The position numbers and the translations under genes are program-made. Under the pieces are notes generated by a model. That model saw nothing but the letters and a program-made list of their open reading frames with translations, searched no databases and was not told the origin of the DNA. Of a stretch of 14,436 nucleotides of DNA, positions 4,068 to 9,526 are shown piece after piece. How positions within the stretch are numbered: the stretch's first letter is position 1; each line of letters begins with the position of its first letter. The DNA is from Candidatus Thorarchaeota archaeon (GTDB taxonomy: Archaea > Asgardarchaeota > Thorarchaeia > Thorarchaeales > Thorarchaeaceae). The DNA is taken from positions 1 through 14,436 of the forward strand of contig JBHLRQ010000080.1 in the NCBI GenBank assembly GCA_048882385.1. Direction: 5' to 3'.

Positions 4068-4562
4068 CTAGTACTCCTCTTCTTCCTCTTCCTCAATCTC
4101 TTCTTCTATTTCCTCTTCTTCCTCTTCCTCAATCTCTTCTTCTATTTCCTCTTCTTCCTCTTCCTCAATCTCTTCTTCTACCGCCTTTTCCTCCTCCTCA
4201 TCGTCTAGGACTTCAATCTCCTCATCTTCCACTTCAGGTTCAGGTTCTGTTTCTGCTGAAATACCTGGTTTCAATTTGAGGATGTAGACGTACGCAATCG
4301 AGAAGCTAATTAGCCCAAGGAAAAGAGTAAGCCACAATGCACCATCCAGTCCAAACCATCTTAGGGGATCAAGAGCAACCATTGTCCTTGGCGTTCCCAA
4401 GATTACAACTTGGAACCACATTGCGATGACAAAAGCTAGTGGAATGCAGATAATTATCAAAAGGACAATAGACATGATAATCTCTGCAGTGTATTTCAAA
4501 ATTCGTCTTAATGTGCTGTCAACAGCCTTTTTCGCCACAGACAATTTCGCTCGCCTTGCCAT
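4068..4562 (-). CDS. Hypothetical 2-TM membrane protein with a very acidic C-terminal tail
   Basis: Basic N-terminus, two hydrophobic segments, then about 60 mostly Glu residues ending ...EEEEEEEY. Start position uncertain. Confidence 0.75.
   Translation of the reverse strand: MARRAKLSVAKKAVDSTLRRILKYTAEIIMSIVLLIIICIPLAFVIAMWFQVVILGTPRTMVALDPLRWFGLDGALWLTLFLGLISFSIAYVYILKLKPGISAETEPEPEVEDEEIEVLDDEEEEKAVEEEIEEEEEEEIEEEIEEEEEEEIEEEIEEEEEEEY
4075..4180. repeat. Perfect 36-bp coding tandem repeat, about 2.9 copies
   Basis: Unit TCCTCTTCTTCCTCTTCCTCAATCTCTTCTTCTATT at 4075-4110, 4111-4146 and 4147-4180 (34 bp). It encodes IEEEIEEEEEEE on the minus strand. Confidence 0.95.
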
Positions 4563-4666: not shown

Positions 4667-5119
4667 GTGAAAAAGAGAACCTGTCTTAGATGTGGGAGTA
4701 CGGACTTGTATACAGGAGTAATATTTGATCAAACACAATATGCAAAGTCACCGTTGATATTTCGAAGAAAATCAGAGCTACAATCAGGACCAGATTATGT
4801 TCCTCTAAATGCTATTCTCTGCAAAACTTGCGGTCATATTGAGCTATTGGCTAATCCAGGTTCTTTCATACAACCAAGACGACGAGAATGTCCACATTGT
4901 GGAGCAATCTATTCGTATCGCATAGAGGATGAAATCCTAACAAATGTCGTCAGATGTTATAATTGTAACAAAGAATTCGGAATCCATCCTCCAATAGTTT
5001 GTCCATCCTGTGGAGCTACATATCTCTATAGTAAAGAAAGAGTCATTGAAGGAACAGTTGTTTGTCAAAACTGCGAAATGGTCATCTTAGTTGAAGACTC
5101 TTATGAAGCAGAGGAGTAA
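4667..5119 (+). CDS. Multi zinc-ribbon protein (six CxxC motifs, about three ribbons)
   Basis: CLRC, CKTC, CPHC, CYNC, CPSC and CQNC. GTG start with GAGGG upstream. Confidence 0.8.
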   Translation: MKKRTCLRCGSTDLYTGVIFDQTQYAKSPLIFRRKSELQSGPDYVPLNAILCKTCGHIELLANPGSFIQPRRRECPHCGAIYSYRIEDEILTNVVRCYNCNKEFGIHPPIVCPSCGATYLYSKERVIEGTVVCQNCEMVILVEDSYEAEE

Positions 5120-5154
5120 TCAAAGAAATCGATCATGTATTGTTAGTAGAACTA

Positions 5155-5255
5155 AGAAAGCAGGGAGAAGGGGGCCCGTAAAAATCGGGTCGGACGGTTG
5201 GGAGAGAGGGAGGGAGTGACAGATTCATGATGGTCGCGATTCGGACCCCCTGTCC
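5155..5255 (-). ncRNA. Putative small RNA, locus 1 (terminal GC stem plus C/U-rich loop)
   Basis: On the minus strand AGGGGGUCCG (5251-5242) pairs with CGGGCCCCCU (5178-5169) with one G-U, extended by AAUCG/CGAUU. Loop contains CUCCCUCCCUCUCUCCCAAC. TATA-like element about 25-30 nt upstream. Paralogous to 8050-8130. Ends are estimates. Confidence 0.6.
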
Positions 5256-5273
5256 AAGACATAATATGAATTA

Positions 5274-5288
5274 TTAGAATATAAGCAT
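5274..5288 (-). promoter_or_regulatory. TATA-like promoter of putative sRNA locus 1
   Basis: GCTTATATTCTAA on the minus strand. The TATATTCTAA core is shared with locus 2 at nearly the same spacing. Confidence 0.55.
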
Positions 5289-5397
5289 TACTCATATTTA
5301 TTGATTGGTTTCCAAACTACTGAGCAGAAACCTTATGATAGGATAAGTCAAAGGTTTTAGTCTTGGATGTGTTATCTTCAAAGAGAGGTTGTATGCA

Positions 5398-6921
5398 ATG
5401 GGGCAAGTTAGTGGTTCAGATTGGGAGAACCGAATATTACTAGTCCTGTTTGTATTCATAACTGTCAGCTTCGCGGTTGCAGGTTTTTCTGGTCTAGCAT
5501 GGAGAATTCTTGAATTGACCGTGTTTTCATTCTGGATGGTCATAATCACATTCGCCCTTGCAATCTCTGCTGTTACTGTCTTGACATACTCTTTTGTTTC
5601 ATTTTCACAAAGTCGTGAAGTAAGACATCTAATGTTGCTTCTAATGAGTGCAAACATCATTCTCTGGGGAATCTTATTCCTCCTTTCTCACCCATCCTCA
5701 ATTGACTGGTCTGTATTATTCTCAGAGAGAAATAGAAATCGAACTTTGGCAATGGCACTTGTCCTTATTGTTATACCGACAGTCATTCTTGGTTCTTTCA
5801 CAGGAGAACTAAAACCTTCCAGACCAAGTGTGCTCCTACTTATCGTCTGGGGGACTGTAATCTTGCCAATTTTGAGCATTGGATTGTTCATAAGCCCTGA
5901 CCCTGTGTTCATCATGGTTACATCAGAAGGTGGAATTGAAGGACTGACCCCGATCGGTGCAGCGCTCTCTTTAGGATACCTCATTTCTCAGGTACTCGCT
6001 GTGCCACGACTTGCTCAGATATGGAGAAGGACTCGAAACACCCTTGATCTAGCACTTCTTCTAGCCATGATTCTCTGGCTTATCGGTACAGTCTTTATCA
6101 TTGTACTTTGGGACCCACTTCAAGTAGCTGAGCTAATATGGTTGACATCCATCATAGCTGGATTTCTCCTGATCGCATCGGTTCAATTCATCACATCTAT
6201 CATTTACCCTCATAGGCATCTTGAAACGATGGTGAATCAAAGAACTGAGGAATTGAATCTCTCAAAACAAGAGAGTGAGTTCTACCTAAGGATGTGGACA
6301 CACAAAATTGGAAATTTCCTGCAGGGCATGATTACATATCTCGACATTCTTGAGATATCTGAACAGAATAGTGAAGAAGATTTGAAGACAAGAGCAGCCG
6401 CTGGAGATTTGAGTAGAGAGGCTGCAATGGTGAATCACCAAGTTGTACAACTCTCAAGAATAAAGGAGAGCATGGATCAAGTATTATGGCCAGTTAATTT
6501 GGTTCAGCTTATAGATGACGCAATTATGTCTGCGAAAGAGCTGTTTGGCGAGGATATTTTCACAACAAGTCTTTCTGGACTCGAATCTCTGACTGTTGAG
6601 GGTGATAATCTCCTACCTTTAGCCTTTCAAAGCGCTATTGCCTTTCATTTGAAAAACCGCGTGACCAATAAGCCAGCTATATCATTTGAGATGTCAGAGA
6701 ATGAAGCAGGACCATTTGTGAAGGTCACAAGTCAAGGAAGACCCCTTCCAGAAGAACTCAAACTATTTCTGGAGGGGGATGGCATATCTGGAATGATTGC
6801 GCTGGATTTGGACCTCTTTACCATCAAGCTATTAATGAATCGTTACAAAGCAACAATTGGTTGTTCCCGAGATGATGAGAAGAATGAAAACTCCTGTACC
6901 TTTGTTTTTCCAAGAGTATAG
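5398..6921 (+). CDS. Multi-TM membrane sensor with a degenerate histidine-kinase-like (HisKA/HATPase) C-terminus
   Basis: About 7 TM segments, coiled coil LETMVNQRTEEL, H-box-like FYLRMWTHKIGNFLQG, and a HATPase-like region lacking canonical N/G boxes. ATG at 5398 with GAGGT upstream. Confidence 0.75.
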   Translation: MGQVSGSDWENRILLVLFVFITVSFAVAGFSGLAWRILELTVFSFWMVIITFALAISAVTVLTYSFVSFSQSREVRHLMLLLMSANIILWGILFLLSHPSSIDWSVLFSERNRNRTLAMALVLIVIPTVILGSFTGELKPSRPSVLLLIVWGTVILPILSIGLFISPDPVFIMVTSEGGIEGLTPIGAALSLGYLISQVLAVPRLAQIWRRTRNTLDLALLLAMILWLIGTVFIIVLWDPLQVAELIWLTSIIAGFLLIASVQFITSIIYPHRHLETMVNQRTEELNLSKQESEFYLRMWTHKIGNFLQGMITYLDILEISEQNSEEDLKTRAAAGDLSREAAMVNHQVVQLSRIKESMDQVLWPVNLVQLIDDAIMSAKELFGEDIFTTSLSGLESLTVEGDNLLPLAFQSAIAFHLKNRVTNKPAISFEMSENEAGPFVKVTSQGRPLPEELKLFLEGDGISGMIALDLDLFTIKLLMNRYKATIGCSRDDEKNENSCTFVFPRV

Positions 6922-7063
6922 ATTTCTCTCTACAAGATAAAGTCCATGAATTAGAGTATGATATTCGTGTAATCTCATGCAATCGAATCATGGGAGAAAG
7001 GAAGGAATGATGCAATTGACTGTGGTTTCTGATTTGGATCGATGCGTTCGGTGGTTTGGAAAA

Positions 7064-7984
7064 TCAATATGACTTCTTCAGATCGATGGTCACAGTACTC
7101 AAACCACTCTGACTGATTCTCGAGTCAAGAATAGTCAAATTTCTTCCTAGCGATTTCTCATAGAGGGCATAGATAAGTGATGTCGGACCTAAAGCGAGAA
7201 TAGGCGAAACAATCACTGCTACAAGAGGAATCAAGAATATCAAAAGAGAGAAACCACCTTCTGGTGGAGATATTAAAACGAATTGATACCACTCAACTGT
7301 TTGAATAATAGTAAATACATAAGCCACAAACGTTGATACTCCAGCAAATCCTTTCAATAACTTCAGCTACCAGTTACCAACTCCGTCAATATCTGTAGTT
7401 GCACGTGGAACAAGTTTTCTTTCACAGACTAATCCCTTATCTTGCATCAGCCACATGGGTGAAAAAATCAAAACAATGAAACTGACCAAGAGAAGGAGAA
7501 TAAAGAGTAGTGAGATACCAGAAACAATGGTCTGTGCTTCTGTGGCAAGAGATTCGAAACTCTCAGTCACAATGAGTGCATCGACTGCACTATTTGCATT
7601 GGAGATTGAATAAGAGAGTCCAAGAGATACGAGCCCGGGTAGAAACATACGACGAAGAGTAAATGATGTTGAAGATTTGGTATCAATCTGTTGAACATAA
7701 TAGTTATAGTTATTTCTTGTAATCCTCGAATGCATCCTCCAAAAGAAGACAGAAAGTTGGGGAGTCGCTATATAGACAACGCCCCCAATGAATATGGAGA
7801 TTAGATAGAGCTATAGAAAATCTAGAAGAATGTCTCCAGGAAGAACACGGTATATTCTCAACTCGTTGAAAGGAAAGGCACCTAGATATGTGAATGCAAC
7901 CGTCACGATAATAGTAGTGAGTACAATAATTTGGATGGTAAGAAAAAGCTTCCATGACCCTTTGGATTAAATCTCTAAACTCAT
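7064..7984 (-). pseudogene. Interrupted multi-TM membrane protein gene (306 codons, three in-frame stops)
   Basis: ATG at 7984 with GGAGTG upstream. One frame reads MSLEI*SKGSWKLFLTIQIIV...DILLDFL*LYLISIFIGG...MHSRITR...DGVGNW*LKLLKGFAG...KKSY. Stops are at 7967-7969 (TAA), 7811-7813 (TAG) and 7367-7369 (TAG). This joins the listed ORFs 7367..7735 and 7064..7357. Confidence 0.8.
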
Positions 7985-8049
7985 TTGTCTCACTCCAGTT
8001 TGAGTGTGAACATATTGGTTAGAAGATATATCCTAAGCTTGTACGATTA

Positions 8050-8130
8050 AAATGAAGGGAGAGAAAGGGGGCCCCGCAGAGAACATGGAAGGAGGAGAGA
8101 GTTGTGAGAGAGAAAGGACCCCCTGGCCCT
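8050..8130 (-). ncRNA. Putative small RNA, locus 2 (paralog of locus 1)
   Basis: AGGGGGUCC (8124-8116) pairs with GGGCCCCCU (8074-8066) with the same G-U. Loop UUUCUCUCUCACAACUCUCUCCUCCUUCC, 3' tail UUCUCUCCCUUCAUUUU. TATA-like element upstream. Ends are estimates. Confidence 0.6.
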
Positions 8131-8145
8131 AACACATAGTATTGC

Positions 8146-8163
8146 TTAGAATATATTTAAGCA
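8146..8163 (-). promoter_or_regulatory. TATA-like promoter of putative sRNA locus 2
   Basis: GCTTAAATATATTCTAA on the minus strand, matching the locus 1 upstream sequence. Confidence 0.55.
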
Positions 8164-8258
8164 AATGTCGGATTGCGGATAGTATTACTACAAATCCAGC
8201 TTGAAAGTTGACTATTCATCTATGGTTTTAGAATTCGCATTTGACAGTTATAGAATTT

Positions 8259-8561
8259 TCAAACATTAAGTACAGAGTGTTTCCTTCTGTCAAAGAAATA
8301 TTGGACTATGGCAAGAATGATGCAGAGATATCCACCGATAAGACCGAGTACGTTCCCCCATGTGATTATTACTATAAAGTAGATTGAGTAGTATCCTGAA
8401 CTTCCCACTAAGAAAGAAAGTATTGATCCAATGACATACGTCTTTGTAGCAGACGAAGCAACCTTACTACGAGAAAATAATAGAAGAAGTATTACTGCGA
8501 GTAGAAATCCTACTGCCATATACATGTAGATCGTATTAAGAAGAGATGACACACTCTGCAA
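8259..8561 (-). CDS. Small hypothetical membrane protein (about 3 TM)
   Basis: 100 aa with three hydrophobic segments and a basic C-terminus. TTG start with GGTGGA 6 nt upstream. Confidence 0.6.
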   Translation of the reverse strand: MQSVSSLLNTIYMYMAVGFLLAVILLLLFSRSKVASSATKTYVIGSILSFLVGSSGYYSIYFIVIITWGNVLGLIGGYLCIILAIVQYFFDRRKHSVLNV

Positions 8562-8890
8562 TGATCTTCCACCACGATAGCTCTGTTCTTTATTTAGAAG
8601 AGATAAATCTTACAGACACACAGATGCAAACATTCTCAGAAGCGACTACTAATGACATTATTAATGTATAAGATGAAGCCCTTGGGAGTCATTGGGAAAC
8701 TTGAAACGTTTTCATTACGCAAAAAGCATTGCGAATTAGAATTATCTATGTGGAAAGGTAGAAATTTCTCTCATTTAATTAGGGTGATGCTGAAAGGTCG
8801 ACCTGTGTGTTTTTGAGCTTATTCTCTCTTTCATCTCTGTTTTTTGCGATATTCGCAATAAAATAATGAATAATCTGTAGTTATTACCAC

Positions 8891-8903
8891 AATTATTATA
8901 AGT
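8891..8903 (+). promoter_or_regulatory. TATA-like promoter of putative sRNA locus 3
   Basis: TTATAAG at 8896-8902, about 25 nt before the start of the stem. No plus-strand ORF follows. Confidence 0.45.
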
Positions 8904-8923
8904 AATTGTGGAAAAAACAAATA

Positions 8924-9030
8924 GTGAAGTGTGTGTGAGAGGCGCCAACCCCCTCCTGAAACATCCTCTCCCTCCTCAAGCAACCATGCGAACCTGAATT
9001 TTTCTGGCGCCCTCACTCCTTCAAAACTTT
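8924..9030 (+). ncRNA. Putative small RNA, locus 3 (same architecture, different stem sequence)
   Basis: GUGAG-a-GGCGCCA (8935-8947) pairs with UGGCGCC-CUCAC (9005-9016), and UGAAG (8925-8929) with CUUCA (9019-9023). Loop contains CCCCCUCC, UCCUCUCCCUCCUC and CAAC. Confidence 0.5.
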
Positions 9031-9076
9031 GATTCTGCTATCGAGTATTGAACACTTTTGGTTAAAAGTAGAGAAA

Positions 9077-9526
9077 CTAGATCTGGGGAATCATGTTCAT
9101 AATGATAGGAGCATATCCATGTGAGAATACCTCAACCACGAATGGGTCACTAGCTTCAGCAACTTTGGTCCATGAGCCATTGTCACGACGATAATATGCA
9201 TACTGAGCATTACTGTGACGAATCTCAATTACAGTTTTGATTGGCAATCTGTTAAGATCAGATACTTCAAGAGACTGAGGCTGATTCGAGCCATCATCTT
9301 CAGGATTCGAGAGAAAGACTGAGAATATACTTCCTTCATCAGGTAGAAGCATGGCAACGTGTGGGCGGTCGATAGGATTCCAATATCGGGGAACAGGCGG
9401 ATAGCGGCATGAGAAAGCACCAGATGCTGATCGAAGAATTAGATATGTTGCTTCATCTATCGTCATTTGATCTGTTACCTCTAGCGTGCTTGACACGACT
9501 GATTGTGTGTGTATACTGCCTGTCAC
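9077..9526 (-). CDS. Hypothetical soluble protein
   Basis: 149-aa ORF with protein-like composition. TTATA about 25-29 nt upstream of the GTG suggests a leaderless transcript. Confidence 0.65.
   Translation of the reverse strand: MTGSIHTQSVVSSTLEVTDQMTIDEATYLILRSASGAFSCRYPPVPRYWNPIDRPHVAMLLPDEGSIFSVFLSNPEDDGSNQPQSLEVSDLNRLPIKTVIEIRHSNAQYAYYRRDNGSWTKVAEASDPFVVEVFSHGYAPIIMNMIPQI

Follow-up and report, generated by a model that had tools for sequence, protein, structure and literature searches.

Small RNAs (sRNAs) such as RsaE/RoxS and the Staphylococcus aureus RNAs with UCCC loops use unpaired C-rich loop words to pair with G-rich Shine-Dalgarno (SD) regions. For the Asgard archaea, the closest prokaryotic relatives of eukaryotes, we know of almost nothing that has been learned about regulatory RNAs, and a full-text literature search for small RNAs of Asgard archaea or Thorarchaeota returned none described among the matches listed (supplementary files lay outside its scope). 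In the Alphaproteobacteria, the cuckoo or CcsR sRNAs (the RSs0680 and SmelC397 group) are encoded, according to the available part of one report, by clustered sister genes beside a gene of unknown function; their stems are dominated by compensatory change, their fixed loop motif CCUCCUCCC is rich in CCUCC and in part identical to the anti-SD sequence, and each RNA strings together two to four hairpins 24-50 nt long, with loops of 9-27 nt, and is presumed to occlude ribosome-binding sites (RBSs) (PMC4615179). The same part of that report mentions C-rich-motif sRNAs of Firmicutes alongside them (PMC4615179). Among archaea, sRNA154 and sRNA41 of Methanosarcina mazei mask RBSs with loops that carry anti-RBS sequence, as far as the available part of the work on them describes (PMC5867862). 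Here we describe three predicted non-coding RNA (ncRNA) genes, L1, L2 and L3, on a 14,436-nt contig (JBHLRQ010000080.1, or C80, analysed over its whole length and hereafter called the window) of a Thorarchaeota metagenome-assembled genome (MAG; GCA_048882385.1; 3.70 Mb in 256 contigs, 42.7% GC, 95% complete). On the evidence of their sequences they appear to be a new and well-defined family of riboregulators in the Asgard archaea.

The nearest analogue of L1-L3 in both plan and logic is the cuckoo/CcsR group as the excerpted report presents it, an analogy that implies no homology. Like those RNAs, L1-L3 are clustered at one syntenic intergenic locus across genera, carry a CCUCC loop motif that overlaps the anti-SD sequence, and have stems that change by compensation around a loop motif that is fixed. 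They differ in being archaeal and in having a single end-to-end clamp around a loop of 39-63 nt, and the cuckoo motif itself, CCUCCUCCC (CCTCCTCCC), is present in 0/50 L2, 0/18 L3 and 2/16 L1 homologs. With sRNA154 and sRNA41 of M. mazei they share an archaeal host and an intergenic position and, if the reading developed below is right, action in trans and RBS masking as well. The two M. mazei RNAs, unlike L1-L3, have experimental targets; they belong to another phylum and show no sequence similarity, and the clamp with its large loop and the three-gene cluster are features of L1-L3 that the available part of that work does not describe for them. The C-rich sRNAs of Firmicutes are further removed, being bacterial, with Rho-independent terminators, short loops and unrelated sequence. 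RNAs of the CsrB/RsmZ and CrcZ type resemble L1-L3 in their repeated short single-stranded words and in having several paralogous genes, but the words of L1-L3 are of the CUCC type rather than the GGA or CA type and number only 2.6 to 4.6 CTCC words per RNA on average.

That L1, L2 and L3 are real, conserved and uncatalogued ncRNA genes is, in our judgement, very probable, given their gene-like layout, their conservation and synteny, the covariation of the stems, the strand signal and the predicted accessibility of the loops. A preliminary description, drawn from the sequence of the window alone, had reported three loci here, in each of which a TATA-like box precedes a GC-rich closing stem around a C/U-rich loop, with a pyrimidine tail at the end, and all of these parts are in place (Table 1). 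It had further proposed an undescribed small-RNA family built on one plan, and the catalogues agree. Rfam 15 gave no match over the whole window at gathering thresholds and, at E <= 5 over positions 5000-9200, nothing on the loci, its sole match being a small nucleolar RNA (snoRNA) model at 6063-6142, in a coding region, with 20.5 bits against a gathering threshold of 40. ARAGORN found no transfer RNA (tRNA) or transfer-messenger RNA (tmRNA) in the window, the C box RTGATGA occurs in none of 84 homologs, and no C/D model matches L1-L3.

The arrangement is also rare. Run over the whole genome, the pattern suggested in the preliminary description matches L1 and L2 only, and its reversed control matches nothing. 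A looser scan of both strands, requiring a GC stem of at least 7 bp, a loop of 30-120 nt, a pyrimidine run of at least 12 and a CCTCC-like word, returned six matches genome-wide, three of which are L1, L2 and L3; a stricter scan returned two, one of them L2. No further genomic copies were found by blastn-short, which gave only chance matches of 13-18 nt, by pattern or by covariance model (CM). What had been called a multi-copy family is accordingly a set of three paralogous genes, exactly three per genome at one locus, and not a dispersed family.

We infer that each RNA, of about 80-110 nt, is transcribed from its own TATA-box promoter and ends in a CU-rich tail with a run of U. From the start of the box to the start of the RNA model is 27-30 nt in all three genes, and among homologs a TTA[AT]A[AT] box is found 23-34 nt ahead of the RNA in 42/48 L2 (at -34 to -28), 13/18 L3 (-27 to -25) and 16/16 L1 (-30 to -23), compared with 51 of 1960 random positions at the same loci; in most of the rows without the standard hexamer a variant takes its place, for instance TTTAATAA or ATATTTAAG. 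L1 and L2 have the promoter word TATATTCTAA in common, and their stem sequence too; here the preliminary description needs correcting, the stem of L3 being unrelated to theirs in sequence. Conservation is confined to the promoter and the RNA body, mean pairwise identity within the genus being 0.61-0.71 in the body, 0.51-0.66 over the 70-nt promoter and 0.18-0.33 in the further flanks. A coding function is ruled out, because indels of 1-2 nt between orthologs disrupt every frame that starts with ATG.

A covarying GC-rich helix would join the two ends of each RNA and so clamp a G-poor loop. Folded as single sequences, L1 (z = 0.30) and L2 (z = -1.28) have unremarkable energies and only L3 stands out (z = -2.87), and the case for structure therefore rests on covariation; unexceptional folding is in fact expected, since most of the RNA is meant to remain unpaired. 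Applied to plain MAFFT alignments, RNAalifold recovered only the end-to-end helices, with compensatory changes at 7/14 pairs in L3, 3/10 in L2 and 2/9 in L1. The covariation of L3 in this setting is independent of any bias from model fitting, because the alignment was made without a model. We then have the CM-guided alignments, which include other genera; the models were built from 17 L3, 20 L2 and 19 L1 orthologs, excluding an L1 copy cut short by the end of its contig. For L2 (53 rows), 93.5% of cells are paired and 7/10 pairs have changed on both sides, values reached by 0/500 shuffles, and slid controls are 60-81% paired. For L3 (18 rows), 92.1% of cells are paired and 8/14 pairs have changed on both sides, with slid controls at 42-57%; the both-side changes are reached by 7/500 shuffles and the covariation score by 0/500.

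The stems are rewritten freely. Across genera those of L2 read GGGGGCC/GGCCCCC, GGGAGCC/GGCTCCC, CAAGAGTC/GACTCTTG and CTCGAGGG/CCCCTCGAG; those of L3 include GAGAGGCGCC/GGCGCCTCTC, GAGGAGCGC/GCGCTCCTC and GGGGCGCGGGAGG/CCTCCTGCGTCCCC; and L1 has the compensatory variants GGGAGTCCG/CGGACTCCC and CGGGGCCCG/TGGGCCCC in other genera. Read by eye, L2 also has small variable inner helices around its loop core (AGAAgCA/TGTTCT, GAACGCG/CGCGTTC or ACGCT/AGCGT), and L1 orthologs have an inner hairpin that is deleted in this genome. The L1 stem here comprises 10 bp, including one G.U pair, and encloses a loop of 63 nt; the loops of L2 and L3 measure 39 and 57 nt. Cells with G.U pairs outnumber those with A.C (64 vs 14 in L2, 18 vs 7 in L3, 9 vs 2 in L1), indicating that the C/U-rich strand is the folded RNA, in agreement with the side on which the promoters lie and with the U runs, and with the strand chosen in the preliminary description. 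Two points tell against this structural reading: the 'further pair types' measure for L3 is reached by 110/500 shuffles, and the CM-guided pair statistics and the G.U/A.C counts were taken on alignments made to fit the model structure, which biases them towards the model. The conservation with covariation envisaged in the preliminary description is present, CMs matching in relatives and stems changing by compensation. Its division of labour between a conserved protein-binding stem and a variable loop is the reverse of what we see, as the stems change and the loop cores are near-invariant across genera.

Paired 5' and 3' ends around a pyrimidine-rich internal loop are shared with Y RNAs and bacterial YrlA, and a Y-RNA-like partnership with the Ro60 (TROVE) protein had been raised at the outset. 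We give it hardly any credence. Ro binds a conserved helix, and the stem sequence of L1-L3 is not conserved; neither Y_RNA nor any other Rfam model matches the loci at E <= 5. The analogy fails on the protein, since a six-frame search of the 95%-complete genome with TROVE (PF05731) gave 0 matches, with Deinococcus and Bacteroides controls positive.

To describe the distribution of the genes, we compared the genome with 40 relatives, 24 of the same genus and 16 of other genera. Within the genus, BLAST found L1 in 20 genomes, L2 in 21 and L3 in 16, one copy each in nearly every genome and mutually close; in the 16 genomes of other genera it found none of the three. CMs searched against 87 genomes of the class placed L2 in 50 (7/17 genera), L3 in 29 (6/17) and L1 in 30 (2/17). 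Unfiltered searches of the loci extended this by four genera: in two, a weaker L1-like gene follows L2 at a distance of 150-230 nt, and in the other two an L2-like gene is divergent from L3. Part of the cluster is thus present in at least ten genera. In a draw of 151 Asgard genomes the L2 model had no match in any of the 124 outside the family, and on these searches L1-L3 are restricted to one Thorarchaeota family.

The conserved order is a HAD hydrolase, a 149-aa open reading frame (ORF), L3 (leftward), L2 and L1 (rightward), a two-transmembrane (2-TM) protein with a poly-Glu tail, and ParA/NUBPL. The immediate protein neighbours are present at 30-32 of the 49 loci examined, and several genomes have all three RNA genes inside a stretch of about 700 nt. 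In the present genome L2 and L1 are set apart by an insert of 2.8 kb, which carries a 510-aa gene and a membrane-protein gene that is broken, and an opposite-strand Zn-ribbon gene stands between L1 and the gene of the 2-TM protein. L1-L3 are intact despite these insertions, indicating that they are separate units and not pieces of one precursor or of a neighbouring mRNA.

This bears on whether the loci could be cis elements instead, namely terminator hairpins (for the convergent 149-aa gene by L3) or a leader or attenuator of the co-oriented membrane-protein gene downstream, which we consider very unlikely. L3 does stand tail-to-tail with ORF 9077-9526, and its reverse strand would give this hairpin too, with a T run after it; compact clusters have L2, L1 and the membrane-protein gene in one orientation within about 600 nt; and the genome has other short GC hairpins that end in a CU tail and a T run and score weakly with the L2 model. 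However, each locus is served by a conserved TATA box of its own, at promoter distance on the C/U strand, the excess of G.U over A.C pairs favours that same strand, the loops of 39-63 nt, unlike those of terminators, carry the most conserved sequence, and the 2.8-kb insert and the opposite-strand Zn-ribbon gene have left the three genes whole. The weak CM matches in the genome itself (including C11:3969, C111:4801, C92:7830 and C34:12712) were rejected as further members, being short terminator-like hairpins or unconvincing. Those at C34:12712-12765(-), C92:7830-7871(-) and C11:3969-4016(-) each show a short GC-rich hairpin, then a CU-rich tail and a T run, much as the 3' ends of L1 and L2 do, and this may be the usual form of a terminator in this organism.

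A search of sequencing runs listed 20 DNA metagenomes, and no RNA run, with this DNA. Contigs from four metagenome DNA runs allowed a comparison between strains. In other samples the L1 loop has a 1-nt insertion at 5222, and L3 a base change and a 1-nt deletion at 8948/8949. The contigs diverge into unrelated sequence at about 5157-5198 and at 8195, suggesting that the flanks are prone to rearrangement and that the RNA genes themselves are kept. Differing flanks, together with the terminal inverted repeats that the stems constitute, would also be expected if the loci were remnants of a miniature inverted-repeat transposable element (MITE) or some other repeat, an alternative that the preliminary description had set against its own small-RNA model. 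We find it extremely improbable: there are only three copies, all at one locus and none elsewhere, their position is orthologous across at least ten genera, the stems covary around fixed loops, and no target-site duplications were seen. Nor did the contigs yield a reliable join across a missing copy, the joint from 8900 to 8971 (depth 2.4, 23-nt side) falling below our trust limit and being left unused.

The most constant parts of the RNAs are in the loops. The L2 loop core TCTCTCCTCCTTC is near-invariant across genera, as is CCTCCTCAAGCAACCA in L3; more broadly, L2 keeps TCTCTCTC...TTCTCTCTCCTCCTTC...GTTCTC across genera, L3 keeps CTCCCTCCTGAAA and ATCCTCTCCTCCTCAAGCAACCA[TA]GCGAAC, and L1 keeps CTGTCACTCCCTCCCTCTCTC within the genus and elsewhere a CU tract of 25-30 nt. 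CCTCC is present in 41/50 L2, 17/18 L3 and 16/16 L1 homologs, and across genera L1 and L3 retain a U-rich tract immediately ahead of the 3' arm. The CAAC word to which the preliminary description drew attention is found in all three loci here, but among orthologs it is kept only in L3 (16/18, against 5/50 for L2 and 7/16 for L1). G makes up 16-17% of the RNAs and is nearly all in the stems; a loop almost without G would not fold on itself, leaving the pyrimidine tracts exposed, and the inner pyrimidine runs have a predicted probability of being unpaired of 0.82-0.94, compared with about 0.5 elsewhere.

These loops would display conserved single-stranded tracts with many CUCC and CCUCC(U) words, a core that they share with 16S ribosomal RNA (rRNA) at its 3' end. 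The 16S rRNA is not assembled in this MAG (its primer word was not found), so the 3' end was taken from a relative in a related genus, where it reads GGATCACCTCCTAC / ...CACCTCCTAC. The 3' end of a 16S gene from a related genus (G042:C2) also holds an insertion of about 90 nt, consisting of three CACATTTCGTG-type hairpin repeats, between the conserved GTAACAAGGTA...GCGG and CTGCGGATGGATCACCTCC.

The exposed tracts may pair in trans with purine-rich regions of the SD type in mRNAs and thereby alter translation or stability. Pairing with RBSs or purine tracts is our best single guess at the mechanism, weakly supported and offered tentatively. The explanation as a whole, in which three paralogous and independently transcribed ncRNA genes act in trans by this mechanism, is likewise one that we favour without expecting it to be right in every part. 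The SD-like word GGAGG is enriched at starts: it stands upstream of 178 of 2812 ATGs of long ORFs (6.3%) as compared with 27 of 2812 control windows (1.0%). Among 127 genomic sites complementary to the L2 core over at least 10 nt, 33 lie directly before the start codon of an ORF of at least 80 aa, compared with 14.3 +/- 6.8 in composition-matched shuffles (2/150 reach 33) and with 18/126 for the reversed sequence.

Several results weigh against pairing of this kind. The enrichment of L2 at start sites (about p = 0.013) is one of four such tests, all of which use start codons from crude ORF calls, and the other three showed no enrichment: L1 has 4/54 sites against a shuffle mean of 7.6 (equalled by 61/80 shuffles), L3a 9/70 against 5.1 (12/80) and L3b 9/71 against 7.3 (25/80). 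The invariant L2 core, of about 14-16 nt, and CCTCCTCAAGCAACCA of L3 are longer than short SD pairing requires, pointing to an additional or different reader, such as a protein. A search in five genomes of five genera for the 14-mer complement of the L2 core, allowing at most one mismatch, found no shared site; of its 21 matches four fall on the L2 genes, and in one genome nothing else matched. At RBS-like sites, GGAGG followed by AGAG occurs in 12/50 cases, among the top contexts and not distinctive.

A separate candidate came from an element of about 54 nt, in which a purine-rich stretch with GGAGGTG is followed by a hairpin (C12:46221-46274, 48065-48118 and ~49694-49740; C10:12-68). It immediately follows the stop codons of tandem paralogous ORFs, each about 577 aa long, is present in one to four copies in 30/87 genomes of the class, is 95% identical between genera and has no Rfam match. 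The element holds an 11-nt perfect complement to the L2 loop. As a partner RNA of L2 it was set aside: duplex z-scores range from +0.3 to -3.2 against mononucleotide loop shuffles, significant for some copies only, and the complementary part does not track the change of L2 in another genus. We keep it as a lead.

If a protein is the reader, L1-L3 could be sponges, decoys or scaffolds whose CUCC/CCUCC words, with the U tract of L1 and L3, bind pyrimidine- or U-binding proteins of the KH or Sm-like kind; in a variant, the loops might mimic the 3' end of 16S rRNA and titrate a factor that reads it. We take this for a serious rival, though a somewhat less likely one than pairing. In archaea, oligo-U is a ligand of Sm proteins, and the CCUCC end of 16S rRNA is one of the KH protein aDim2/Pno1. 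The loop cores are invariant over genera whose flanking proteins are only 55-77% identical, the U-rich tract before the 3' arm is kept, each RNA carries several CTCC words, and the lack of RBS enrichment for L1 and L3 and of a long conserved complement to the L2 core among the five genera favours a protein as well. The genome has three LSM-domain genes (C1:38571, C132:8371 and C52:10721), which are unlinked to the cluster; Sm/Lsm genes were among those whose co-occurrence the preliminary description had proposed to look for. Against protein binding, no candidate protein gene is linked to L1-L3, whose conserved neighbours are the 2-TM protein and a 149-aa protein without family match, and the motif copies per RNA are few for a sponge.

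Taken further, the same features would make L1-L3 the cores of an Asgard-specific class of ribonucleoproteins (RNPs) rather than antisense regulators, a view we regard as improbable. Clamp and U tract would then dock Sm-like proteins, and the CCUCC strands would imitate the 16S 3' end and capture factors that read it in small-subunit maturation or initiation, the cluster acting as a decoy that tunes ribosome production or activity. In some L3 orthologs the U tract beside the 3' arm reads AAUUUUUUGG, resembling a eukaryotic Sm site.

Whichever reader proves right, L1-L3 are a well-defined case, with clear promoters, firm covariation of the closing stems, invariant single-stranded cores and a presence in at least ten genera of one family. 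If RBS masking is true, SD-directed riboregulation like that of Alphaproteobacteria and Firmicutes would have arisen independently in the Asgard archaea; if protein binding is true, the genes may point to a new RNP. Either way they are ready for RNA catalogues and genome annotation, and can serve as probes for metatranscriptomes.

Table 1. Predicted small RNA genes L1-L3, their parts and associated sequence words in the window.
Feature	Position	Strand	Remarks
L1 small RNA gene (predicted, ~103 nt)	5154-5256	-	Start, closing stem, loop, 3' arm and CU-rich tail ending TTTCTT; CM R3, 111 bits
L1 TATA-like box TTATAT	5279-5284	-	Begins 28 nt ahead of RNA model start
L1 5' arm of closing stem AGGGGGTCCG	5242-5251	-	About 22 nt downstream of the box
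L1 pyrimidine tract CACTCCCTCCCTCTCTCCC in loop	5200-5218	-	Best-conserved part of L1 within the genus; predicted unpaired, P = 0.94
L1 U5 tract, directly 5' of 3' arm	5180-5184	-	U-rich tract kept here in L1 orthologs of three genera
L1 3' arm of closing stem CGGGCCCCCT	5169-5178	-	Followed by CU-rich tail TCTCCCTGCTTTCTT, to ~5154
L2 small RNA gene (predicted, ~83 nt)	8048-8130	-	CM R2, 81 bits
L2 TATA-like box TTAAATAT	8153-8160	-	Begins 30 nt ahead of RNA model start
L2 5' arm of closing stem	8115-8124	-	
L2 loop core CTCTCTCCTCCTTCC	8087-8101	-	TCTCCTCC in 41/50 family members
L2 3' arm of closing stem	8066-8075	-	Tail TTCTCTCCCTTCATTTT
L3 small RNA gene (predicted, ~108 nt)	8923-9030	+	CM R1, 95 bits
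L3 TATA-like box TTATAA	8896-8901	+	Begins 27 nt ahead of RNA model start; preceded by conserved CCACAATTA
L3 outer helix GTGAAG/CTTCA and inner helix GAGAGGCGCC/GGCGCCCTC	inner arms 8941-8947 and 9005-9011	+	
L3 two CU tracts	8949-8957 and 8964-8977	+	
L3 conserved CAAGCAACCATGCGAAC	8977-8993	+	
L3 U5 tract	8999-9003	+	
TCCGCAAT word, candidate regulator site	8172-8179	-	Upstream of L2 TATA box; conserved in genus orthologs
TTCGCAAT word	8728-8735	-	L2-L3 intergenic region
TTCGCAAT word	8852-8859	+	Upstream of L3 promoter; half of perfect palindrome TTGCGATATTCGCAA

The last three rows of Table 1 concern a word, TYCGCAAT, that occurs only three times in the window, each time between L2 and L3 (expected 0.81; 9/200 shuffles reach three), and that is kept upstream of L2 and L3 in orthologs. 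We regard it as a candidate binding site, or operator, of a shared regulator.

Pfam gave nothing for the 164-aa and 149-aa neighbour ORFs, and ESM Atlas gave the latter scores of just 0.75-0.77. The conserved neighbour downstream of L1, at 4068-4562 (-), is the 2-TM protein, the C-terminal 60 residues of which are nearly pure Glu/Ile repeats and which belongs to no Pfam family; its mRNA is rich in GAR and hence generally complementary to CU tracts. The membrane-protein gene at 7064-7955 (-), of about 300 aa, is whole in seven relatives and is broken here into three ORFs. At its in-frame stop, 7367-7369, two other samples have contigs with a sense codon, through a C-to-G difference at 7367, suggesting either a strain-specific nonsense change or an assembly error. 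Elsewhere in the genome, a multi-copy repeat with GTGGTAGGAGGGGGGAGTTTCGTAA, often at contig ends (C29:26083, C5:56106(-), C7:17, C122:9270, C2:3840 and C123:48), is probably the end of an insertion sequence or of another repeat that breaks the assembly.

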